DNA of 26,770 bases from Promethearchaeota archaeon (lineage in GTDB: Archaea; Asgardarchaeota; Lokiarchaeia; Sigyniarchaeales; SOKP01). How positions within the stretch are numbered: the stretch's first letter is position 1; each line of letters opens with the position of its first letter. The notes beneath the pieces are model-generated. The model did not search any database and was not told the origin of the DNA. It saw only the letters and a program-made list of their open reading frames with translations. Of this stretch, positions 3,581-26,770 are shown piece by piece. Position numbers and translations under genes: made by a program. The stretch spans positions 1 through 26,770 of the forward strand of contig SDNY01000046.1 of assembly GCA_004524535.1 (NCBI GenBank), written 5' to 3'.

Positions 3581-5677
3581 TTATAGAAATGCAGCAAGTA
3601 AGCCTCTTCCGCCACCGAACAATAAGAGAAATCCCATAAAGATTGAGGCTGTCAAGGACATTACGACGAGTAATGTGTTTATACTTGGACCAGCAGTATC
3701 TTTGAATGGATCTCCAACAGTATCACCTGTTATTGAAGCTTTATGTGCATCGGTACCTTTACCGCCTAAGTTGCCATCTTCAATGAACTTTTTAGCGTTG
3801 TCCCAGCTACCTCCGGCATTTGACATCAAAATTGCGAATACAAAACCAGATAAAATAGCTCCAGCTAAGAACGCTCCTAACGCTGCAACTCCAAAAAGAA
3901 TTCCAACTGCTATTGGTATCACAATGGATATTATACTTGGTAGAACAAGTTCTCTTAAAGCTCCCCTAGTAGCGATATTAATACATTTATTGAAATCAGC
4001 GGGTTCTTCACCTGTAAGTATTTTTGGATTTTCTTCAAATTGTCTTCTAATTTCACGTACCATCTTCCCTGCATTTCTTTGTACAGCAAGGATTAATAGA
4101 GCTGAGAACAATGCCGGCACTACGACACCTATGAAGGCACCTATTAGGACGTTTATAGTAAGTAAATCGATTATTGAGATTCCCGCCTCTTCAGCAAATG
4201 AAAACAATAGTGCCATTACTGTTAAATTAGCAGCTCCTATAGCAAATCCCTTAGTGATTGCTTTGGCAGTATTTCCAGCGGAATCCATTTTATCCGCAAC
4301 CCGGATGACTTCATCTCCTAAATCTCCTTGTTCAGCAATACCTCGAGCATTATCACATATAGGACCATAGGCATCATTTGCGACAATTGTACCTACAATG
4401 GCTAACATTCCAACAGCAGCCATTCCCACTCCTAGAACACCATATAACATATAAGCTATAGCCATAGCAACTATAATTCCTATAGCAGCTGGAATGATAC
4501 TCATTAGACCGTATGAAAATCCAGAAAGTATAACAACCGCATCGCCTTCTTGAGCAGCTTCAGCTATTTTTCTTGTTGGGGCTCTATCTTCCCTAGTATA
4601 GTAATCACTTGTAAACCCTATCACAATACCACTGATAAGACCAATTACAGTACAAAAATAGATGCCCCATAACCTATCAAAAAACTTAGGATATTCTAAT
4701 ACCATCACATATATTATAAGGAAAGCTAAAACCGCATAAATTACCGTTGCTAAATAAGTCCCTGTATTAAGAGCTTTTCCTGGTTCCTCAGAACCAAACC
4801 ACTTAATAATATAGATTCCAATTAAAGAGGCAATTAATCCAACACTGCATATTACAATAGGTAATATAATGAAAAGAGGTACCAACGTTTTTGACCCAAC
4901 TAATACAACTGATGTCGATAAAATCATTGCCGCTACAATAGACGCTACATAAGAGTCAAATAGATCACTTCCCATTCCTGCTATATCACCAACATTATCT
5001 CCTACGTTATCAGCAATTGTTGCAGGATTACGAGGATCATCTTCAGGAAGTTTATATTCCGCCTTGCCTACTAAATCAGCGCCTACATCAGCAGTTTTAG
5101 TGTAAATACCACCACCGCACTTCATAAACAATGCAACACTACTCGCACCAAAGCTAAATCCTAATACAATCAACGCAGATTGAAAAACCATGTATATAAC
5201 AGAGACACCAATTAACGCTGAACCAACAACGGCAAGCCCCATGACAGCACCGCCGAAAAATGCGACGTTAAATCCTTCTTTGGTTCCAATTGTACAACCT
5301 TGTGCCGCTCTTGTATTAGCCTTGACTCCAACTTCCATTCCTAGCCACCCACTCAGCATTGAAGCAACAGCTCCAATTAAATAGCATAAACTTTGTTCCC
5401 AGTTCATAAATATAATAGCTCGATTATAATCCTTGAGTGGAGAAGGAAGAAATAATAGGGCTACGGCAAGTACAATACAAAAAATACCCAGTATTTTGTA
5501 TTGCGTTCTAATAAATGTACTGGCACCAGATTCTATATAACCTGAGACTTCTACCATTCTTTCATTGCCAGGATCCGCTTTCATTACCTTTTTAGCAAAA
5601 ACAATTGCCATTATAATACTAAGAACTCCCGCAATCAAAGCAATAAAAATATAGATTGGTATTTCCATATTTGTCAC
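3581..5677 (-). CDS. hppA: Membrane-bound H+-translocating pyrophosphatase, K+-independent type
   Basis: GGGIYTKTADVGADLVGK, EDDPRNPATIADNVGDNVGD, GGSWDNAKK and GDTVGDPFKDTAGPS motifs; GNTAKA carries the Lys of K+-independent enzymes. Confidence 0.95.
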   Translation of the reverse strand: MTNMEIPIYIFIALIAGVLSIIMAIVFAKKVMKADPGNERMVEVSGYIESGASTFIRTQYKILGIFCIVLAVALLFLPSPLKDYNRAIIFMNWEQSLCYLIGAVASMLSGWLGMEVGVKANTRAAQGCTIGTKEGFNVAFFGGAVMGLAVVGSALIGVSVIYMVFQSALIVLGFSFGASSVALFMKCGGGIYTKTADVGADLVGKAEYKLPEDDPRNPATIADNVGDNVGDIAGMGSDLFDSYVASIVAAMILSTSVVLVGSKTLVPLFIILPIVICSVGLIASLIGIYIIKWFGSEEPGKALNTGTYLATVIYAVLAFLIIYVMVLEYPKFFDRLWGIYFCTVIGLISGIVIGFTSDYYTREDRAPTRKIAEAAQEGDAVVILSGFSYGLMSIIPAAIGIIVAMAIAYMLYGVLGVGMAAVGMLAIVGTIVANDAYGPICDNARGIAEQGDLGDEVIRVADKMDSAGNTAKAITKGFAIGAANLTVMALLFSFAEEAGISIIDLLTINVLIGAFIGVVVPALFSALLILAVQRNAGKMVREIRRQFEENPKILTGEEPADFNKCINIATRGALRELVLPSIISIVIPIAVGILFGVAALGAFLAGAILSGFVFAILMSNAGGSWDNAKKFIEDGNLGGKGTDAHKASITGDTVGDPFKDTAGPSINTLLVVMSLTASIFMGFLLLFGGGRGLLAAFL

Positions 5678-11841: not shown

Positions 11842-13038
11842 ATGGATGAGGATGAATTTCGAGCGCAATTCAATAAAAAATCAGTTTTTAAACAAGCAAG
11901 CTCATTAGATTTAAGCTACGTTCCAGAAAAATTATATTGCCGAGATGAAGTTATTAAAAAACTAATCTATAATTATCGCAGAATTTTTGAAGAAACCGAT
12001 GAGCCTCCTAGTATAAATTGTTTATTATTGGGAAAAGGAGGGATTGGGAAAACCATAACAGCTAGATTTTTCGGAAAAACCTTTCATACAATTGCTTTAG
12101 AAAAAGATTTTAAACTTTTTATTGAGTATTATAATTGTATTAATTTCAGATCCAAAAGCAAAATTATAAGAGAATTATTAGCAAAATATACCCACGGATC
12201 TGGAAGGGGTTTTTCTGATGATGAAGCATTGAAGTTAATTTTGACGCAACTGGTCAGAAATAATGGATACATGTTTTTGGTAATTGATGAAATTCATCTT
12301 TTAAAACCTGAAGATGTCTTAGCTTTTCTGGATATAGCCGAAACTTTTGGACATCAAAATGCAAAGCTTTCCATATTACTAGTTAGTAGAATTAAAGATT
12401 GGATGACAATTGAGACTGAAAGAATTTTAAGTAGATTAAATGATAAAATTAGACTTAAACCCTATGATTTTGAGGATTCAATGTTAATTTTGCAATATAG
12501 AAGCGATTTAGCATTTAAGGAAAACGTCATTGATGATGAAATTTTGACTATGATTGCTCAAATTGTCGTAGCGCACAAAAATATGCGACATGGTATCGAA
12601 ATATTACGAAAAAGCGGTTTATATGCCGATAAAGAAGGAATAAATCATATAACGGCAGATATAATAAGGGCTGCTTCAAATGAGGTATATCCTACATTCA
12701 GAGGAGATATTGTGGACCAATTAAACGACCAAGAACTCCTTGCTTTATATGGAATTGTAAAGACTTTAATAAATAATGATGAGCCGTTTACTCTAGTTGA
12801 TGATGCTTACGAAGAATATTTAGTAGTATGTGAAAATTATTCAATCTCCCCCCATGTTAAAATGAGCTTTCGGAAATATGTTCGACAACTTAATCAACTG
12901 AAAATAATTGCGTCTAAAACCGTGAGGATCGAAGAAGCCCAACGTGGTCGACATTTACAAATTACTTTATTAGATATCCCAGCTATAAAACTTAAAGAAC
13001 TATTAGAAGATATATTTGAAAAAAAATTTGTATCATAA
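11842..13038 (+). CDS. cdc6: Orc1/Cdc6 family replication initiator (AAA+ plus winged helix)
   Basis: LDLSYVPEKLYCRD, Walker A GKGGIGKT, YYNC, Walker B VIDEIH, L.PY....IL..R and a C-terminal winged helix with GR. Confidence 0.9.
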   Translation: MDEDEFRAQFNKKSVFKQASSLDLSYVPEKLYCRDEVIKKLIYNYRRIFEETDEPPSINCLLLGKGGIGKTITARFFGKTFHTIALEKDFKLFIEYYNCINFRSKSKIIRELLAKYTHGSGRGFSDDEALKLILTQLVRNNGYMFLVIDEIHLLKPEDVLAFLDIAETFGHQNAKLSILLVSRIKDWMTIETERILSRLNDKIRLKPYDFEDSMLILQYRSDLAFKENVIDDEILTMIAQIVVAHKNMRHGIEILRKSGLYADKEGINHITADIIRAASNEVYPTFRGDIVDQLNDQELLALYGIVKTLINNDEPFTLVDDAYEEYLVVCENYSISPHVKMSFRKYVRQLNQLKIIASKTVRIEEAQRGRHLQITLLDIPAIKLKELLEDIFEKKFVS

Positions 13039-13130
13039 TTCTACATTCAGCTTAAGGATTTATTGTCGACACTTGCGTTGATTTCGGATTTAAATGTTAT
13101 TAATCATAAATTACAACTGATGGAAAAAAA

Positions 13131-14372
13131 ATGAATGAAAATACTAAATGGTTTAACAATAAATGGTGGATTTCCCCTCTCAACTACGATGGAGAATTGA
13201 GAGAAGGTTTTGATTTGCCTGCAAAAGTTTATGTGAGAGACTCAACGATTCGAGAAGGCGAAGAAACTCCAGGTGTTTATTATACATTAGAGCAAAAAAT
13301 TAAAATCGTTGAAAAACTCGAAGAATTAGGAGTCGAGCACATAGATTGTGGGTATATTGGACAAGTTCAAGACCAGTGGGACTTAGCAAACGAAATTAAA
13401 GAAAGGGGCATCAGATTAAAGACATATTCTCATTTAAGTACAAATCCCACACGTTGGGAGGATGAAATAAAAAAATCTTTAGAAGCTAAACTTGATTATA
13501 TTGGCTTTGGAATTGTTTTAACTCCTTGGCAGCTCCAATTATTTACTGGTAATGATAAAGTAACTCCAGAAGTGATGATCGGTTTAATACCATCTGTTCT
13601 AAGGAGAATTAAAAAGTTAGGTGGTCAAGCAATCTTAGATTGTGTTGACGCCACTCGCTCAGAGATGCCTATTTTAAAAAAAGCAATTGAAAAAGGAGTT
13701 AAAATGGGTGCTAATATGGTGATGTTATATGACACTGTAGGAGCATGCTGCGTTCCCGCAATTTCTTACATGATTAAACAATTAAAACCAATTGTCAATG
13801 AGGTACCGCTTGGAATACATGTTCACGATGATTTTGGCTTGGGAACTGCTTCCACTATTGCTGCTGTAGAGCAAGGAGCAATATATATGGACTTAGTTGT
13901 TAATAAATTAGGAGATCGTGCAGGAAATACCTCTCTTGAAGAAGTTGTTGTTGCACTAGAGATGCTATATGGGATTGATACCTCGATAGAATTATCGAAA
14001 TTATACGAGATTAGTAAATATATTGAAAAAGTTTCTGGAGTACCATTGCCTTATAATAAACCCGTGGTAGGCCGGAATACATTTATACATGAAAGCGAAC
14101 TTCATGTTATGAGCGCATTAGAAAAAGATAAATATTGGATGTGTTTCACACCCTATAGACCTGAAGTTGTTGGTCAAGAAGAAAATATAATTTTTGGTCC
14201 AACCACATTACATGGCGATGCTATTAGAATGAAATGTAAACAACTTGGAATCGTTAATTACGAAAAATATGTTGACGAGATATTAGAAAAAACACATTCC
14301 ATTATTACTAAAAAGAAATTCATTACCGAAAAAGAATTAGAATTGTTAATTAAAGAATTAAAAATTGATTAA
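13131..14372 (+). CDS. DRE-TIM metallolyase, homocitrate/isopropylmalate synthase-like, lacking the LeuA regulatory domain
   Basis: RDSTIREGEETPG, YDTVG, GIHVHDDFGLG, LGDRAGNTSLEEV and NKPVVG.N.F.HES..H. Confidence 0.8.
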   Translation: MNENTKWFNNKWWISPLNYDGELREGFDLPAKVYVRDSTIREGEETPGVYYTLEQKIKIVEKLEELGVEHIDCGYIGQVQDQWDLANEIKERGIRLKTYSHLSTNPTRWEDEIKKSLEAKLDYIGFGIVLTPWQLQLFTGNDKVTPEVMIGLIPSVLRRIKKLGGQAILDCVDATRSEMPILKKAIEKGVKMGANMVMLYDTVGACCVPAISYMIKQLKPIVNEVPLGIHVHDDFGLGTASTIAAVEQGAIYMDLVVNKLGDRAGNTSLEEVVVALEMLYGIDTSIELSKLYEISKYIEKVSGVPLPYNKPVVGRNTFIHESELHVMSALEKDKYWMCFTPYRPEVVGQEENIIFGPTTLHGDAIRMKCKQLGIVNYEKYVDEILEKTHSIITKKKFITEKELELLIKELKID

Positions 14373-14420
14373 ATCACCCCATTTCAGTTACTATAACTCT
14401 AAAATTTTATTATTTTAATT

Positions 14421-14444
14421 TTTCTTTTAAAAGTAGAAGATTTA
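14421..14444 (+). repeat. 24-bp direct repeat, left of three-gene cassette
   Basis: TTTCTTTTAAAAGTAGAAGATTTA; 23/24 identical to 16952-16975. Confidence 0.65.
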
Positions 14445-14579
14445 ACTTCACTATTTCTTACTAAATTCGCAAACTCTTAACGATTATTAGAAATTATATG
14501 TTGCATTTTAAACAATCATATTGATATATATAAAAATACAATGTAATATTTGAAGAATAATTACTTGAAGAGGTTGAAT

Positions 14580-15137
14580 ATGAATAGTGAAGAAGATTTA
14601 GATGAGCTTAAAATTATTGAACAGTACATCATTCTTCTTTTGGGGGTAATGGATAAGCCGATTCCATCAACGACTCATTTACAAAAAGAGTTATTCTTTC
14701 TTTCCCAAGCAAATCCAATTATTAGAAATTTCATTACTTTTCAAAAACATTATTTTGGACCATATTCGGATGTAGTAGATGATTTATCGAGAAATCCAGT
14801 TCATTTTAAAGATCCGTTTGAATATGACAAAGATGACAAGTTTATATTAATGGAAAATGGTAAAGAAATATTCAAAAAATTAGTTGATCATAATAATGCT
14901 AATGAAGACTTCCAAAAATTGCTAAGTGCTATGAAATTAGCCAGAAAATTATATGAGAAATTAACTACTGATGAGTTGCTATTTCTAATATATATAACTT
15001 ATGGAGAATATATTGAGAAATCACATAAAGCTAAAGAACTACTTAGTGAAAGAAATAGATTAAAAATTGCTCAACGGTTATTAAAAAAGGGCGTAATTAC
15101 GAAGGGACGATATTTAGAATTGGTGGAATCTCAATGA
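14580..15137 (+). CDS. SocA/Panacea (DUF4065/YwgA)-like winged-helix protein
   Basis: I.STTHLQKELFFL ... F..HYFGPYS..V motif; ATG 14580 follows GAGGTTG (ORF track starts at TTG 14550). Confidence 0.6.
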   Translation: MNSEEDLDELKIIEQYIILLLGVMDKPIPSTTHLQKELFFLSQANPIIRNFITFQKHYFGPYSDVVDDLSRNPVHFKDPFEYDKDDKFILMENGKEIFKKLVDHNNANEDFQKLLSAMKLARKLYEKLTTDELLFLIYITYGEYIEKSHKAKELLSERNRLKIAQRLLKKGVITKGRYLELVESQ

Positions 15138-15679
15138 ATAAGATACGGGTAATTCCTGACAGCAGTTTCTATATTTGTTTCATTGATAATATTAAAGACC
15201 ATAAAAGCATTATTGAAATAATCAAAAATGATAAATTTAAATTTATAATAGGTGTTGTTGTTAAAAGTGAGATAGCGAAATCACCCAATTACAATAGAAT
15301 TGAAGCTGTAATTGAACCAGATGTAGAGTTATTCTCAGAAATAAATTATGGAGAAATATTAAGACCTTTGTTTTCAAAAGAGGAATTGAAAAAAGGTGAA
15401 AATGAAGTAATAACAATTTCATTTATATTATTTGATTTAGATTATGATATTATAACTATTATAGATGATGAGGAACCAAGACAATTTTTTATTAATAATT
15501 TAACTGAATGTGCTGATAAATTGACAGGTACTATTGGATTTATTGGAGATTGTGTCTGTATTTATGAGGTTTTTAAAAAGGATAAAGGATTAAGTATCTT
15601 GGTGGCTATCAAAAATTCAAAATTTAGAATTACTAAAGTCATAATTAATGAGGTAATGAATAAGATTAGAGATTGTTAA
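15134..15679 (+). CDS. PIN-domain protein
   Basis: VIPDSSFYI, V.SEI, GENEVI, IIDDEEPR and GTIGFI give the PIN acidic residues; ATGA overlap with the upstream gene. Confidence 0.65.
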   Translation: MNKIRVIPDSSFYICFIDNIKDHKSIIEIIKNDKFKFIIGVVVKSEIAKSPNYNRIEAVIEPDVELFSEINYGEILRPLFSKEELKKGENEVITISFILFDLDYDIITIIDDEEPRQFFINNLTECADKLTGTIGFIGDCVCIYEVFKKDKGLSILVAIKNSKFRITKVIINEVMNKIRDC

Positions 15680-15680
15680 A

Positions 15681-16874
15681 ATGGTAAAGGATATTAATAT
15701 TAGGGAAGCAATTATGGATAAAACTTCCCATTTTAATATAAAAAGATTTAAGATTGGGAATTTAAGGATAAATGGCCCTACTAAGATAATAGATATTAGA
15801 GATACAACAAAAGACTTATTTAATAGAGAAAGTAATAAATTTAAAAATATTATTTTAGAAAATTCAAAGCTGGTTATAGAGGATACAATCAACAAAGTTT
15901 TACAAGAATCTGATGACCAAAAAATAAAGCAGCAATTCGGTTATAAAGAATGGTTTTCTATATATCCTTTCATAATTTCTCATACTTTTAAATTTAATCC
16001 CTATCAAAATTATGATAAAATAGAAAAGATTGCTGAATATTTTGACTACTATTATGAATTTTCTAATCCCTTTTTATTGATACCAAATATAAAAATTGAA
16101 AAATATATTTCAGAAAAAGATAAATCAGGGAAGATTCAAACTAAAAAGATAAAAATAATTAATCTTGAGGATTACATCAAATTCGTTGATGAAACCTATG
16201 ATATATTGAATTATAAAAATAAAAAACCAATTTTTGTACCCTTATCTTTAAAATTTGGAATAACAGACATCAAAAAATTAGCTCAAGAATTTATTAAAAA
16301 GGAGTATTTCAATATTTGGATTGATTTTGAAGGCTCTGCGATATCTAAAACTAAGATAGCAAGAATTAGAGCTTTCTGGAGGCAATTTGATGAAAAATTA
16401 AGAACAAAAGATATTGTAATTTATTCTACAAATCTAAAAAGAGAAATAATATCCAATAAATATGATGATGAGAGTCCCTCCTCGGATATTTTAGCTTCAA
16501 TAATAGGTTCAAATATAATTGGCGTTAATAGAGAACCCCCGAGAATCCCAAATCGTGCTTTAAGTCCAGAAGAGTTACTAGAATTGAAATTACATAAAGC
16601 AAGAATATTCGATTCCAATACTTATTATTATCTTAAACTTAAGGCATCAAATCTTAATAAAAAACAACAAAAAAATCTCATGAAACCTAATTTTAATAAA
16701 ATATTTAATTCAGGACTTTTAGAAAATGAATTTAAAAATCAATCCCAATATTTTCTAGACAATAATCAAATTGAAGGATATATTTCCAATAAAGAAATGA
16801 TTCAGAACTATAAAGATGGAGAATTAAAACGTGATTTATTCCATAAAGATATTAAAATTTCATCATGGTTCTAA
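15681..16874 (+). CDS. Hypothetical protein (possible TIM-barrel/TGT-like fold)
   Basis: 397-aa ORF starting 1 nt after the PIN gene stop; alternating beta/alpha pattern (LLIP, IFVPL, IWIDFEG, VIYSTN, IIGVN). The fold call is inference only. Confidence 0.5.
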   Translation: MVKDINIREAIMDKTSHFNIKRFKIGNLRINGPTKIIDIRDTTKDLFNRESNKFKNIILENSKLVIEDTINKVLQESDDQKIKQQFGYKEWFSIYPFIISHTFKFNPYQNYDKIEKIAEYFDYYYEFSNPFLLIPNIKIEKYISEKDKSGKIQTKKIKIINLEDYIKFVDETYDILNYKNKKPIFVPLSLKFGITDIKKLAQEFIKKEYFNIWIDFEGSAISKTKIARIRAFWRQFDEKLRTKDIVIYSTNLKREIISNKYDDESPSSDILASIIGSNIIGVNREPPRIPNRALSPEELLELKLHKARIFDSNTYYYLKLKASNLNKKQQKNLMKPNFNKIFNSGLLENEFKNQSQYFLDNNQIEGYISNKEMIQNYKDGELKRDLFHKDIKISSWF

Positions 16875-16951
16875 ATTCATTAAAGATTTAATAGCTTTAC
16901 TTTTATCTTCTTTTTTTTTCTCAAAAATTTATAGCTTATATTTGCAATAAC

Positions 16952-17041: not shown

Positions 17042-17303
17042 CTAATATCTCTCTTTTTCTGACTTGGATTTACTATACCAATCCAACCATTCTTTACGAC
17101 GACTTTTTTGGCGCTGAAAATCATCACCATCGGAAACATTTTGATCTCTAATCTTTTTCCAATAACGGTCTAATTCAGCTCTTGTTAAAGACAAGCCACA
17201 TGACTTACAGACCATTGATTTTGTATCGGGGATATATTTCATGACCCCAGCGCAAACCAGAAGCGCCTGACATTACAAACGCTCTTTCTGGGCATCTAGC
17301 CAT
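17042..17303 (-). CDS. Small Zn-ribbon protein, 76 aa after splicing; exons 17303-17286 and 17254-17042
   Basis: Joined product MARCPE|CAGVMKYIPDTKSMVCKSCGLSLTRAELD...RRKEWLDWYSK has two CxxC knuckles. The ORF-track version (from 17242) lacks the first knuckle. Confidence 0.85.
17255..17285 (-). other. 31-nt BHB-type intron in the Zn-ribbon gene
   Basis: UGC-CCAG-AA^A-GAGCGUUUG-UAAUGU-CAGGCGCUU-CUGG-UU^U-GCG: 4-bp central helix, two 3-nt bulges, paired inner and outer helices. Confidence 0.88.
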
Positions 17304-17458
17304 TGTTTTTAAAACATCCTCTGTAATTGTTAGGTGATCATGATTCTTTTCTTATTTATTATAATATTAGAATTATTTAATTTTAAAATATTTATTGAAT
17401 TAATTTTCTTAACTCATAAATTATAATGTAATAACTTATGTTTTTGAAGTGAGAATAT

Positions 17459-18685: not shown

Positions 18686-18703
18686 TATTTCATAACAACC
18701 AGA

Positions 18704-19384
18704 TCAAGAATTTTCTTGTTTAATGAAGTATATTCCGTGGATAATTAACCATAATAATAATGAACCAATAGAGATCCATTCAATGGCGTAGGTGAAGGGT
18801 TGTGGGGGAACTGCGGTATAGACGACTATGGTAAAACCTGTAATCCAAATTCCAAACAAAACACTGGTAAGCAATGTAAACGGCACTAAAAAGTTTGCTA
18901 TTTCAGTATTTTTGTATTCAATATATCCATAAAGAAATAACGTAATTGAAAGTGTAGAACTACAAAGTACTGCCATTATATTATGCATTTCAAAGGAAAA
19001 AGGAAGGACCGGATCGTAAGGAAAAACTCCGACCAATATAAACCAAATGCCAGTTAAAATTCCAAGTAATACATCCAGTTTAATAAGCGTGGGATCTTCA
19101 TTTTTTTGTTCCAGATCGCTTCCAATAAATAAAACAATAACAATTAGCAGTGTTCCTCCAACTATTCCTTGAATAAGCATGATTAATTTGACTTCTACTG
19201 GTCCAGCACCCATATCGCTAACATAATTTGTAAACATTCCAAAACTAGGATCAGTTTGGAGATAAATAGATTGAGCCGTCAGACTTAATATAAGTAATAT
19301 TACTACTGCCATAATGCAGAGATAACCACCATTTATTTTTTCAAAAATTCTATCGACTTTTTCCATTTTTTTAGTCATAATCAT
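18704..19384 (-). CDS. DUF998-like membrane protein
   Basis: NYVSDMG, LVGVFPYD...MH..MA and a C-terminal EW; several TM helices. Confidence 0.6.
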   Translation of the reverse strand: MIMTKKMEKVDRIFEKINGGYLCIMAVVILLILSLTAQSIYLQTDPSFGMFTNYVSDMGAGPVEVKLIMLIQGIVGGTLLIVIVLFIGSDLEQKNEDPTLIKLDVLLGILTGIWFILVGVFPYDPVLPFSFEMHNIMAVLCSSTLSITLFLYGYIEYKNTEIANFLVPFTLLTSVLFGIWITGFTIVVYTAVPPQPFTYAIEWISIGSLLLWLIIHGIYFIKQENS

Positions 19385-20736
19385 TTACAAATCCGTATGA
19401 TTGTATCTGCTTTATCTATGTTTTCTTTAGAGATTGATAAAACAAATTTATTCTCTTCTTTCTTAAGGTCTACATCAGTCTTCATAGGTTCAAGAATTAT
19501 CTTTTTAATGTTTTCCCAATGTTCTAAAGAAAATTTAAGAGTTATATCGCCATTTTTACCTTCTAGGTTTATTAAATGAATTAGATTATCACCTTCATGA
19601 ATAGCCCCGATAACACCAAAATCTTTATCACTTATCTCCACACCAGGAACGCTCTTGCTTTTATAATCCATGGGTATAGCATCTCTAAACAATGAAGTCC
19701 TTTGTTTATACCATTCCCCAAAAAGTTCAACATTCTTAGCGGGTTCTGGATACATTTCTCCATTCATCTGGGATGGTAATCCAAAGCAATACTTACCACC
19801 ACTTGCTATAATAATTGCTGCGATTCTAAAGATCTCAAAAGGGTCGGGACGTGCTCTAGGATCGTCCCACATTTTGGCAGCGGGACCACACAACTCCCAA
19901 GGTCTTTCCATTCTCCTATATTTATTTCCTAAATTCCATGCTGCCTTAACATCATGAGCTTCACCAGATAAATAATGCGCATATCTCACTTTTTTATTTA
20001 TGCTTTGGTTATAAGTAAGAACTATATTAGGATATTCTTTTTCTAGTAAATCCATAACTAAAAAAGTTCCGGCATCATCATCATCCCAATACCAATCCAT
20101 CCACATGCCATCGACTTTGTAATTCTCTATTAATTCTTTTACTTGTTTTAACAAGTAGTCCTCGTAGATTTCTGGATTATATGTGAATTCTTTATAAACA
20201 ATGAGATTTTCCTCGCGAGGTATATCATCTTCATTAATTATATTCTCAAACATTTTTAGAAGTGCTTTACCAAAATTTATACAATATTTTACTACCTCTT
20301 CTTTTGAATCTTTATGTAAAGCAATGAAGGAGGGGGTAATTGATCTCAAAGGTTGGATCTCATCAAATTGGGGATTATGGTCAAAGATATTTGAGTAATA
20401 CCATAGAAATGGAATATCATTCTTTTTGCTTTCTTCAGCGAAATCCTTACAATAATCTTTTGGGGTCTTCCACTCAGTATATTTCGTATCCCAATAACAA
20501 ATTCCATCGTGCCATTTCGCTTCAAAAACATGGTAATCTACACCAACTCTTTTAGAAAGGGCGACCCAATCTTTCATTTTACAAAAAGGGCCGTTAAATT
20601 TAAGATTACCATTCTCATCTTGCATGGATGCGTTAAATTTATTATAATCTCGATTCCAACGCCAACCAGGTCTTGCTTCAATCTGATACATTATACCTAA
20701 TCCTGGTTTTTCCCACCATTCTTTTTCTTTTTTCAT
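19381..20736 (-). CDS. Glycoside hydrolase family 29 (alpha-L-fucosidase-like)
   Basis: W...K..GVDYHVFEAKWHDGICYWDT, WYYS, QVKELIENYKVDGMWMD (nucleophile Asp), PWELC and ASGG.Y..G.P...G. Confidence 0.8.
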   Translation of the reverse strand: MKKEKEWWEKPGLGIMYQIEARPGWRWNRDYNKFNASMQDENGNLKFNGPFCKMKDWVALSKRVGVDYHVFEAKWHDGICYWDTKYTEWKTPKDYCKDFAEESKKNDIPFLWYYSNIFDHNPQFDEIQPLRSITPSFIALHKDSKEEVVKYCINFGKALLKMFENIINEDDIPREENLIVYKEFTYNPEIYEDYLLKQVKELIENYKVDGMWMDWYWDDDDAGTFLVMDLLEKEYPNIVLTYNQSINKKVRYAHYLSGEAHDVKAAWNLGNKYRRMERPWELCGPAAKMWDDPRARPDPFEIFRIAAIIIASGGKYCFGLPSQMNGEMYPEPAKNVELFGEWYKQRTSLFRDAIPMDYKSKSVPGVEISDKDFGVIGAIHEGDNLIHLINLEGKNGDITLKFSLEHWENIKKIILEPMKTDVDLKKEENKFVLSISKENIDKADTIIRICK

Positions 20737-20756
20737 TTTAATCTTCTCTTATTCTT

Positions 20757-21968
20757 TTATTTTTCTGGACCTAAATGTTTTAACATAACAAGATTTTCTA
20801 CTTTACTATTATTTTTAATTTCGATACCATTTTGAGCTGCTTCAGCAGTAATAAATAGCTCATCTTTAGTCATTTCTCCGAATCTAATCATCGAAGGTGA
20901 TTCAATGTCTAAAATACCAAACTTGCCATGTCCCTGAATTACAATTATTCCATACGCACTGCTCTCTTTAAATGTTATAGATTTTCCTGGAAGGATTATC
21001 AATTCTTTCGCTGAATAAGCATCTGAATTGTACACAACTAAATATTCTTCATATCCTTCTTCTTTCATTTCTTCAAGAGGTTTAACTGGTTTAGGTTCTA
21101 AGAATCTGTTTTTATAAAAATCAGGATCTGTATTCAAATCCCAATCTATTAAATCCACTATAAAATCCAAATCCATTCTACGCTCTTCAGGTACATCTTT
21201 AACTAAAAGATCTCGAGGGATATACTTATTCCAAGTTATGTTTTGAAACATTGAGAATACATCCGAAGCGTATTGAGGTTCATACGTGAGTAAGGAGCCT
21301 GGTGCATGTAATACACCCGGTGGAACATCCCAGCCTGTTCCAAGCTTTAATTTATAAGCCTTTGACAGATATAGGATTCCATTATCTTGTTTATTCCAGA
21401 GTTCCAAACATTTTTTAACATCTTCTCTTGTAGTCCCGGGATTTAATCCAAAATATGTATGTGGAAAATAAGCAGGATGATTATTTAATTGTTTTGGAAA
21501 ATAATAACCTTCGGGCTTGCCTTTAAGCCCAACTAAGCCTGCTTTCTCATCATCTTGATGTAAGTGAAGAGGTAATGGTTCTAAATTATCAAAAAATTTA
21601 GAATACATAAGCCACCCCTTATATTTATCCATAATATTCTTACCTATGATATCATTTCCCATAATATTAATGGCATCACCCAACAACAATTTATTTACTT
21701 GATTTTCATTCTCTATGTAAATATAACTTAAGCCTTCGTCTTCTAAAGTTAGGGGTCCATTATCCGCCTTGGTAGTTGAGCAAAACCACCTCTCATCAAT
21801 CCCACCTCTATGAGTCCCGAAAGAATAATAATCATCAGGATGTAATTTTAGACGCCTTCCAGGGATGCAAAATTCCCGAGGTACCCAATTAGGAAAAAGT
21901 CTAAGAATGCCTTCTCCCAATTCTAATGCTCTATTCAAGACTTTTTCTGTATCTACCAAGAAGAACAC
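20757..21968 (-). CDS. Cupin-fold sugar-phosphate isomerase-like protein (type I PMI-like)
   Basis: ERW, SKFFD..PLPLHLHQ, GKPEGYYF and VPPGVLHAPG..TYEPQ..SDV metal-binding cupin motifs. Confidence 0.7.
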   Translation of the reverse strand: MFFLVDTEKVLNRALELGEGILRLFPNWVPREFCIPGRRLKLHPDDYYSFGTHRGGIDERWFCSTTKADNGPLTLEDEGLSYIYIENENQVNKLLLGDAINIMGNDIIGKNIMDKYKGWLMYSKFFDNLEPLPLHLHQDDEKAGLVGLKGKPEGYYFPKQLNNHPAYFPHTYFGLNPGTTREDVKKCLELWNKQDNGILYLSKAYKLKLGTGWDVPPGVLHAPGSLLTYEPQYASDVFSMFQNITWNKYIPRDLLVKDVPEERRMDLDFIVDLIDWDLNTDPDFYKNRFLEPKPVKPLEEMKEEGYEEYLVVYNSDAYSAKELIILPGKSITFKESSAYGIIVIQGHGKFGILDIESPSMIRFGEMTKDELFITAEAAQNGIEIKNNSKVENLVMLKHLGPEK

Positions 21969-22051
21969 CTTTTTTAATTATATTTTAATTTTTTAAAACC
22001 TAAAAATATTTTAGAAAAGCGATAATCGCATTTGCAGCGTTAAATTTTTAT

Positions 22052-25419: not shown

Positions 25420-26770
25420 ATGATTGAAAATACTTTGGCTGTTATTGGGCTAAGTTGGGGAGATAAAATATCTGAAAACAGATTTTACCCTAGATGAAGG
25501 CAAAGGTAAGTTTGTCGATTTCTTAGCCCAAAAAGCAGATATAGTCGTTCGTTATGCTGGTGGAAGCAATGCGGGTCATTAAAATAAATCTCTTCGATTT
25601 TCTAGGCTAAACGGTTGTTGCCAACGGCATTAAGTATAAGTTTAAATTGATTCCATCTGGTGCTCCATTGGAGAAAGAGGTTGTTATAGCAAATGGATGC
25701 GTAGTAGATCCAGTTGTCCTGCTTGAAGAAATAGAAAACTTAAAAAACTTGAATAAGCAAGTCAATTTAAAACTAAGTAGCACAGCACACATTATTTTCC
25801 CATTCCAACGTGTTTTAGACGGATTAGAGGAAGAAGCGAAGGGAAAACATGCTGCTGGAACAACAAAAAGAGGTATAGGCCCCACATACTCTGATAAGGC
25901 CGCTCGTTGGGGAATTAGAGTCTATGATTTAATTAATCCTGATTTATTAAGACTAAAATTAATGAAATTATTTGAGCTAAAGAAGGCTCTTATTAAATCA
26001 TTCGATCCCGAATGGGATATGGATTTTGATATTCTTTTTGAAGAATATAAGACATATGGTGATATATTAAAACCTTACGTAATTGACACGGCATATTATT
26101 TGAATAAAGCGATAGATTCCGGAAAAAAAGTAGTTTTCGAAGGTGCCCAAGGTACTTTATTGGGGATAGATCACGGTATGTATCCCTATGGAACGAGCTC
26201 AAATGCAAACGCACTTGGAATATCTGCGGGCACGGGAGTTCCTTCTAAAAAAATTGGTAAAATTATTGGAATTGTCAAAGCTTACACATCAAGAGTTGGG
26301 GGAGGCTTATTTCCAACTGAGTTAACAAATACAATAGCAGAAAAAATCCGAGAACAAGGAAAAGAGTACGGTACAGTAACAGGTAGACCGAGAAGAGTAG
26401 GATGGTTGGATCTCTTTAATATCAAATATTCGATTATGATAAATGGTGTGGATAGTATTATTATCACACTTTTAGATGCTTTAGAAGGCATTAATCCACT
26501 AAAAATTTGTACGGCATATGAATTAGAGGGAAAGATTCTTGAGAGTTGGCCCATCCAATCAGAGATAATAGAAAAATGTATACCCATATATAAAACTTTT
26601 GACGGGTGGGAACAAAAAACTAGTGAAGAATGGTCTGAAATAGCAAAACAAGGTTATGATGCATTGCCTTTAACAATGAAAACATACATTCAATTTATAA
26701 AAGATGAACTTCAAACAGAAATCGCAATGATCTCAATTGGACCAGACAGGAATGACACAATAGTATTGGA
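25420..26770 (+). CDS. purA: Adenylosuccinate synthetase with two introns; exons 25420-25462, 25494-25579, 25611 to beyond the window end
   Basis: Joined product [14 protein letters not shown]|[29 protein letters not shown]|[17 protein letters not shown]...[14 protein letters not shown]...FEGAQG.LL.IDHG.YPY.TSS...[13 protein letters not shown]...[16 protein letters not shown]; exon 3 is open to the window end. Confidence 0.93.
25463..25493 (+). other. purA intron 1, 31 nt, BHB-like
   Basis: GGGG-AG^A-UAAAAUAUCUG-AAAA-CAGAUUUUA-CCCU-AG^A; removal gives TGG GGA GAT GAA GGC (WGDEG). Confidence 0.88.
25580..25610 (+). other. purA intron 2, 31 nt, BHB-like
   Basis: AGCAAUGCG-GGUC-AU^U-AAAAUAAAUC-UCUUC-GAUUUUCUA-GGCU-AA^A-CGGUUGUU; removal gives GGT CAT ACG GTT (GHTV). 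Confidence 0.85.

Follow-up and report, generated by a model that had tools for sequence, protein, structure and literature searches.

A candidate 31-nt BHB intron in a zinc-ribbon gene of an Asgard archaeon and similar short inserts in other protein genes of the same genome

Why does the reading frame of a small zinc-ribbon gene in a Promethearchaeota genome break off inside its first CxxC, when the rest of the protein follows only 31 nt further on? The gene lies on the minus strand at positions 17042 to 17303 of the window, that is, of the whole 26,770-nucleotide stretch analysed here, which is one entire contig (C126) of a genome of 3.66 Mb that is 99% complete and has 30% GC (G000). An RNase P RNA marks the window as archaeal, and its relatives place it in the Asgard phylum Promethearchaeota. 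Every genome in our comparison is a metagenome bin, and one of them (G008), from a sister species of the same genus, was used as the reference. The layout on the minus strand is as the preliminary description gave it: exon 1 (17286 to 17303) reads ATG GCT AGA TGC CCA GAA, 18 bases or 6 codons for M A R C P E; the 31-nt candidate BHB intron occupies 17255 to 17285, as judged by the fold, the register and its absence in orthologues; and exon 2 (17042 to 17254) begins TGC GCT GGG GTC ATG AAA and runs for 70 codons plus a stop. The translations agree with what had been claimed of them. Read without splicing, the frame ends after 32 aa (17205 to 17303), and the truncated call expected from the internal Met was found as an ORF of 66 aa (17042 to 17242), its in-frame AUG lying four codons into exon 2; with the 31 nt removed, the product is a complete 76-aa four-Cys zinc ribbon whose first CxxC is C-P-E-C and whose second CxxC (CKSC) and basic, Trp-rich C-terminal tail are encoded by exon 2. 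The claim that the element is GC-rich against its flanks stands in part, as the insert has 48% GC versus 30% for the genome, but the gene body itself has 33 to 42%. Our answer, which we hold to be probable, is that the 31 nt at 17285 to 17255 (minus strand) are a BHB intron spliced by EndA and RtcB from the mRNA of the 76-aa zinc-ribbon gene; cleavage, ligation and translation of the joined mRNA are steps that we infer.

The whole hBHBh' motif extends over 17247 to 17299 (minus strand), and all of the pairings first listed for it, in the outer helix, central helix, bulges and inner stem, are present. Of the last six bases of exon 1, CCAG (17291-17288) is the 5' strand of the central helix and AA the first two bases of the bulge. 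The intron then supplies the third base of the 5' bulge, A (17285), the 5' arm of the inner stem (17284-17276), a 6-nt loop (17275-17270), the 3' arm (17269-17261), the 3' strand of the central helix, CUGG (17260-17257), and the UU of the 3' bulge (17256-17255), all on the minus strand. The third base of that bulge, the U of the Cys7 codon UGC, is the first base of exon 2; after it, GCG-CUGG (17253-17247) forms the 3' strand of the outer helix. The outer helix pairs CUAG-(A)-UGC with GCG-CUGG (4 bp and 3 bp across one bulged A), the central helix CCAG/CUGG has 4 bp, the bulges AAA and UUU have 3 nt each, and the inner stem has 9 bp. The central helix has the 5' bulge at its loop-facing end and the 3' bulge at its outer end, which is the strict hBHBh' geometry, and cleavage after the second base of each bulge would excise exactly 31 nt. 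A single register yields the joined sequence, and in that register 4/4 central, 3/3 outer and 9/9 inner pairs form.

Folding with RNAfold returned the motif as the minimum-energy structure of 17232 to 17310 (79 nt), at -24.0 kcal/mol and a moderate z of -2.26, a stability that 4 of 200 shuffles attained. The program draws the central helix with 5 bp (CCAGA/UCUGG), which makes the 5' bulge AAG; this register variant has the same energy as the 4-bp reading. When the context is widened to 181 nt, the inner stem and central helix persist (z = -1.34, 19 of 200 shuffles as good), and the inner hairpin alone, at -10.6 kcal/mol and z = -4.2, was matched by none of 1000 shuffles. The motif was also the top candidate in a BHB scan of the window, with a score of 23 against 20.5 for the next. 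Shape alone is nevertheless no evidence, because a strict pair-count pattern (all 4 central pairs, 3 outer and 7 inner ones, with G-U counted as a pair and an L of 24 to 60) is equally frequent in reversed sequence, with 881 occurrences there and 913 in the genome. A genome scan that joined ORFs and asked for a central helix gave no peak at any length and no excess over mis-registered controls (about 49,900 versus 48,600 to 50,500), so a motif search without homology is uninformative in a genome of 30% GC. What argues for a BHB intron is the exact register of the motif at an insert that the orthologues define independently.

In the mechanism that we propose, the transcript would fold such that the UGC|CCAG of exon 1 finds its partners in exon 2 (GCG) and at the 3' end of the intron (CUGG), displaying two 3-nt bulges that flank a 4-bp helix. 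The splicing endonuclease would cleave each bulge between its second and third base (GAA|A and UU|U), RtcB would ligate the exons and probably circularise the intron, and ligation would restore the codon pair GAA-UGC and with it both the first CxxC (C-P-E-C) and the reading frame. Candidates for both enzymes are encoded in the genome, which has two matches to PF01974 (tRNA-intron endonuclease, EndA) over the Pfam cut-off, in open frames of 203 and 202 aa, and one match to RtcB (PF01139) of 561 bits. The Asgard EndA is reported, in a portion of one paper, to be an (alpha-beta)2 enzyme, with an L1 loop or insert linked to broad specificity (PMC5829648). Asgard tRNA genes are described in passages of two others as heavily interrupted and hard to find (10.64898/2026.10.13.758758; PMC11291895); Aragorn found only 12 tRNA genes in our genome, 8 of them with introns, which fits the difficulty described in those passages.

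The insert itself is defined by the orthologues. Starting from the 66-aa ORF, we collected 61 database homologues and compared 24 homologue sequences, among which those of 72 to 79 aa start M..RCPEC[AG]G.MK. with no interruption. The gene is present in 35 of 40 related genomes, and its N-terminus is contiguous at all 18 related-genome loci matched by the pattern, including that of G008, whose zinc-ribbon protein is 92% identical to that of our genome and has no insert. A wider survey of 80 species-representative genomes found 61 contiguous genes, 16 with an insert at the same codon boundary (E6|C7, here site 1), 1 with an insert elsewhere (L115) and 2 unmatched by the pattern; the 80 metagenome loci divide into 39 contiguous, 5 with a site-1 insert, 3 cut by contig ends and 33 distant relatives unmatched by the pattern. 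The predicted junction GAA|UGC reproduces the N-terminus that is contiguous in the orthologues, and the motif ..RCPEC[AG]G.MKY.. expected of them was found in the uninterrupted homologues. Orthologues that truly start at MKY, which would have spoken for a shorter protein, were not encountered: 11 of the 61 database homologues are 66 aa long, and these belong to the insert-carrying clade. Judging by the DNA of that clade, which carries an insert at the site, the 66-aa "MKY..." entries are truncated gene calls and not orthologues lacking the first CxxC.

Within its family, 112 of 133 genomes have the protein; among Asgard genomes, 145 of 399 do. In full-length homologues, which have the four Cys, every Pfam zinc-ribbon match begins at residues 1 to 7, so these matches need the first CxxC; without it, the zinc ribbon cannot form. 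PF08271 (TFIIB-type zinc ribbon) scores 17 to 26 bits, below its cut-off of 29, and PF09297 (NUDIX-type ribbon) is passed by one homologue (26.6 against a cut-off of 24.8). The 66-aa ORF alone gave no significant Pfam match, and a search for a close solved structure of the protein found none.

With 16 of the 80 genomes and 5 metagenome contigs interrupted at E6|C7, we could ask what the inserts at this boundary have in common. Their sequences differ widely, and their lengths of 28, 29, 31 or 32 nt are never divisible by 3. In each of the 17 genome copies with an insert (ours included), exon 1 reads MARCPE, with only synonymous differences, at codons 2, 3 and 4. Because the change is synonymous only, exon 1 appears still to be read as protein, and such selection would make no sense unless the insert were taken out of the RNA; the pattern points to purifying selection on exon 1 and to its translation together with exon 2. 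The helices are likewise kept. The inner region folds with a z below 0 in 17 of 17 genome copies (range -0.7 to -4.2), and the central-helix strand CCAG faces CUGG in our genome, AUGG in L044, L046, L051 and L250, and CUGA in the rest, such that most of the orthologous introns have 3 of 4 central pairs. In an alignment of the 17 sequences, 85% of cells are paired versus 20 to 39% with slid partners, and two pairs have changed on both sides; in the 31-nt class (8 rows) the values are 82% versus 36 to 46%, and 4 of 9 inner pairs show two-sided changes. The covariation score was reached by 24 of 500 shuffles for the 17 sequences and 18 of 500 for the 31-nt class, with rows that are related to one another. 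Changes on both sides, of the kind that the preliminary description told us to look for, are seen at some pairs and the helices are retained, but as covariation the signal is supportive and modest; conservation of exon 1 is the stronger evidence. In L115, the genome with an insert elsewhere, a separate, independent insert of 31 nt interrupts the zinc-ribbon gene about 30 nt in, after C-P-E-C-A-G-K and four codons downstream of site 1. Its central helix, CCGG/CUGG, pairs 4/4, and L114, the closest relative of L115, has no such insert.

The zinc-ribbon insert does not appear to be a lone oddity. Nine further inserts of 29 to 34 nt were found in protein genes of the genome, which with the zinc-ribbon intron makes at least ten. 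Two of them, both of 31 nt and without counterpart in G008, lie in purA (adenylosuccinate synthetase; region at 25420-26770 of the window), at 25463-25493 and 25580-25610 on the plus strand, and are probably the other two motifs meant by the preliminary description, which had counted three. Both are in canonical BHB register with 4/4 central pairs (GGGG/CCCU and GGUC/GGCU) and have weak outer helices. At the first purA site, two other genera (G009 and G013) have 30-nt inserts with in-frame stops, in which the central GGGG faces CUCU or CUUU.

The remaining seven came from a tblastn census of 1.61 Mb of G008 against our genome, with open frames of at least 80 aa (query sets of 591 and 1759 open frames, 451 and 1317 of them with close matches). 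blastn gaps split inserts into pieces, and tblastn was used instead; the tblastn census is blind to in-frame inserts without stop codons. These seven are in the genes for RNA polymerase A' (rpoA1; 31 nt, contig C17, 449-479, minus strand), a B12-binding mutase subunit (32 nt, C113, 6524-6555, minus), a UBC/E2-like protein (29 nt, C123, 17016-17044, minus), a BcrAD-type ATPase (29 nt, C65, 33272-33300, plus), a class-I aldolase (32 nt, C16, 3517-3548, plus), an ABC ATPase (34 nt, C138, 12707-12740, minus) and CdhC (29 nt, C32, 3790-3818, plus). Eight of the nine inserts found by the census, the two in purA included, have a 4/4 central helix in the register that restores the G008 junction peptide, or in one as close to it; the RNA polymerase A' insert has 3 of 4 central pairs. 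Counted over the ten inserts, nine pair 4/4 in one of their 22 sequence-equivalent registers; among 268 control registers, only 11 do so. Not one of the ten lengths is divisible by 3, and four inserts measure exactly 31 nt. Neither a second zinc-ribbon gene nor a second purA was found in the genome, no other close match to rpoA1 or CdhC was seen in the comparisons with it, and the zinc-ribbon insert has no other copies there. Comparison of the ten inserts with one another gave no convincing similarity that would indicate a common origin (best z 3.3 of 45 pairs, mean 0.69).

In the reverse comparison, for inserts present in G008 and absent from our genome, a single 31-nt insert was found (C22, about 94226-94256, minus strand), in a gene that is uninterrupted in our genome (query frame C146_+_12928). 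The script register gives it 1 of 4 central pairs; moved one base to the left, by eye and with the same joined sequence, it has 3 of 4 and an adjacent inner stem. The 17-nt rows of this reverse census look like start-region differences, and rows with an extra 97 to 166 were left out of the insert count, as were the census rows C79 (extra 16) and C145 (extra 8). Several candidates were rejected as introns: C135 (two rows) is an intergenic difference read through by a long frame, C39 is a low-complexity spurious frame, and C28 is a start region. At the aldolase locus (C16, 2850-5634; L293), exon 1 is 98% identical to G008 and the 45 aa after the intron only 76%, and the original C-terminus survives as a 97%-identical remnant some 2 kb downstream; the aldolase intron may have arrived together with foreign replacement DNA. 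A 381-aa frame between the intron and the C-terminal remnant has a LAGLIDADG-like motif, and a homing endonuclease at this locus is not supported, the Pfam match (E = 0.44) not being significant. Taken over the genome, we think it reasonably likely that the zinc-ribbon intron is one of a recently gained population of BHB introns of about 30 nt in Asgard protein genes, with at least ten in this genome and one or two in the parts of the sister species that were compared.

Three other explanations have to be weighed against splicing. The insertion might simply have disabled the gene and never be removed, leaving it dead or reduced to a 66-aa protein that starts at the internal Met and lacks the first CxxC. 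The 66-aa length of 11 of the 61 database homologues and the in-frame AUG four codons into exon 2 agree with this, and a 66-aa product lacking the first CxxC could still be made from that AUG. A dead or truncated gene is contradicted, however, by the conservation of exon 1, which is intact with synonymous change only in all 17 genome copies, and by the similar inserts in indispensable single-copy genes: purA (twice), RNA polymerase A' and CdhC are interrupted in the same way, and neither other copies nor close matches were found in a genome that is 99% complete. An insertion that merely breaks a gene would also not be expected in exact BHB register, and the Pfam zinc-ribbon matches of full-length homologues need the first CxxC that it would remove. 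We regard a disabling insertion as unlikely.

It is also conceivable that no RNA is cut and that the ribosome skips the 31 nt, as in the bypass of T4 gene 60, or frameshifts. The resemblance is of a short non-coding gap with a hairpin inside an ORF: a stable hairpin follows the would-be take-off point, and GAA recurs near the 3' end of the insert in many orthologues. The bypass in gene 60 depends on a take-off and a landing codon that match, which is not the case here: the codon before the landing point in our genome is GUU, unmatched to the take-off GAA, and an orthologue landing on its second GAA would be one base out of frame. What the ten inserts of the genome share is BHB geometry and not matched codons, and a simple frameshift would place about 10 extra residues inside the CxxC; we consider this very unlikely. 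An assembly or binning artefact of a metagenome-assembled genome would account for the four of ten inserts that are exactly 31 nt, a common k-mer size, and for the absence of the G000-type insert sequence from the other records searched. The inserts are not duplications of their flanks, however, and their lengths range over 29 to 34 nt; the same site is interrupted in 21 independent records, namely 16 genomes assembled independently and 5 metagenome contigs, which come from several studies, and an artefact would not fall in BHB register. There is hardly any probability that we would assign to it. The BHB-intron interpretation, by comparison, is supported by the contiguous orthologues, the minimum-energy fold and the same-site inserts with their retained helices.

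If the insert is a BHB intron, it seems to have a history of its own. The gene tree (97 rows, a short alignment and many open forks) places our genome in a group of 31 rows in which the other 30 members have no insert; the other 16 site-1 carriers are intermixed with 28 insert-free genes in another group, and at least four changes of state are forced by well-supported branches. The intron sequence is unlike all other site-1 introns and, as mentioned, was not found in any other record searched. Most likely, our genome gained its intron separately, at a site where the exon sequence can contribute half of the motif; the alternative is that many parallel losses took place.

BHB introns are a known kind of intron, and what is new here is the phylum and the unexpected numbers. 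The closest precedent in a protein gene is reportedly the intron of the cbf5 pre-mRNA of Crenarchaeota (Aeropyrum and Sulfolobus), said to have been described by Watanabe in 2002 and Yokobori in 2009. According to a passage of one article, cbf5 is the only archaeal gene with confirmed pre-mRNA splicing, and its introns are short, of the BHB type, removed by the tRNA-splicing endonuclease and patchily distributed in a way that implies gain and loss, with the gene mis-called in annotation (PMC2738675). Going by that passage, the two cases are alike in having a short BHB-type intron in a protein gene, patchy gain and loss, and gene mis-calls, and the mechanism proposed here is that of cbf5, here predicted from sequence. 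They differ in that the host there is cbf5 (a pseudouridine synthase) of Desulfurococcales and Sulfolobales, and here a 76-aa zinc-ribbon gene of Asgard archaea (Promethearchaeota); host gene and phylum rule out membership in the cbf5 orthologous intron family. With the BHB introns of archaeal tRNA and rRNA, the candidate shares the two 3-nt bulges, the 4-bp helix, the flanking helices and the expected use of EndA and RtcB, but here the exons are coding, and the outer and central helices are built from Cys, Pro and Glu codons that would serve both the protein and the RNA fold. The papers on Asgard introns deal, in the portions consulted, with tRNA genes (10.64898/2026.10.13.758758; PMC11291895). 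In a full-text literature search of main articles, no mention of BHB introns in the protein-coding genes of Asgard archaea turned up. There is a further parallel in eukaryotes. The IRE1-dependent splicing of HAC1, XBP1 and bZIP60 removes a very short intron (26 nt in XBP1) that is cut at stem-loops by a protein endonuclease; in XBP1-type splicing, an RtcB-type ligase does the joining in animals, the reading frame is altered once the intron is gone, and stress regulates the reaction. The likeness is in the very short, frame-changing intron, the protein endonuclease and, in animals, the RtcB-type ligase; the IRE1 kinase-RNase, the twin 7-nt loops and the stress regulation are theirs and set that system apart.

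For Asgard archaea, the observations amount to sequence-level evidence of endonuclease-type mRNA splicing, covering many genes of one genome and, for one gene, many species. If this is true, the archaeal lineage closest to eukaryotes would use the tRNA-splicing endonuclease and RtcB as a general system for splicing mRNA, and introns would repeatedly enter coding sequence at sites capable of forming the motif, with the same codon boundary hit independently in separate clades. Since no insert length is a multiple of 3, an unspliced message would be out of frame, and splicing could therefore act as an on/off control of translation, as in XBP1 and HAC1. Confirmation would mean that gene calls in such genomes are systematically wrong, with truncated or "frameshifted" proteins in core genes, and that intron gain into coding sequence can be observed over times as short as those separating sister species. 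The nearest archaeal kin of eukaryotes would also have an mRNA splicing carried out by proteins only, which bears on ideas of the origin of mRNA splicing and of its regulation. For searches in other genomes, the cases suggest a simple rule, namely an insert relative to orthologues whose length is not a multiple of 3, in which exon bases -6 to -3 should pair with intron bases -6 to -3.

Some other features of the window were recorded. The zinc-ribbon segment has on either side a block that the syntenic region of G008 lacks (13038-16923 and 18697-22046). The two blocks code for an HMGL-like enzyme, a DUF998 protein and an alpha-L-fucosidase-like protein and contain several frames without a Pfam family, and no integrase or endonuclease family was seen in them by Pfam. 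The second-best BHB-like candidate of the window scan (5589-5633, minus strand) is 45 nt long, an in-frame length, with an A/U-rich outer helix of 10 pairs and an inner one of 8, near the start of a 698-aa ORF (3581-5677); it may be due to chance. The only Rfam match in the window is an archaeal RNase P RNA (RF00373, 119 bits) at 1122-1448 on the minus strand.
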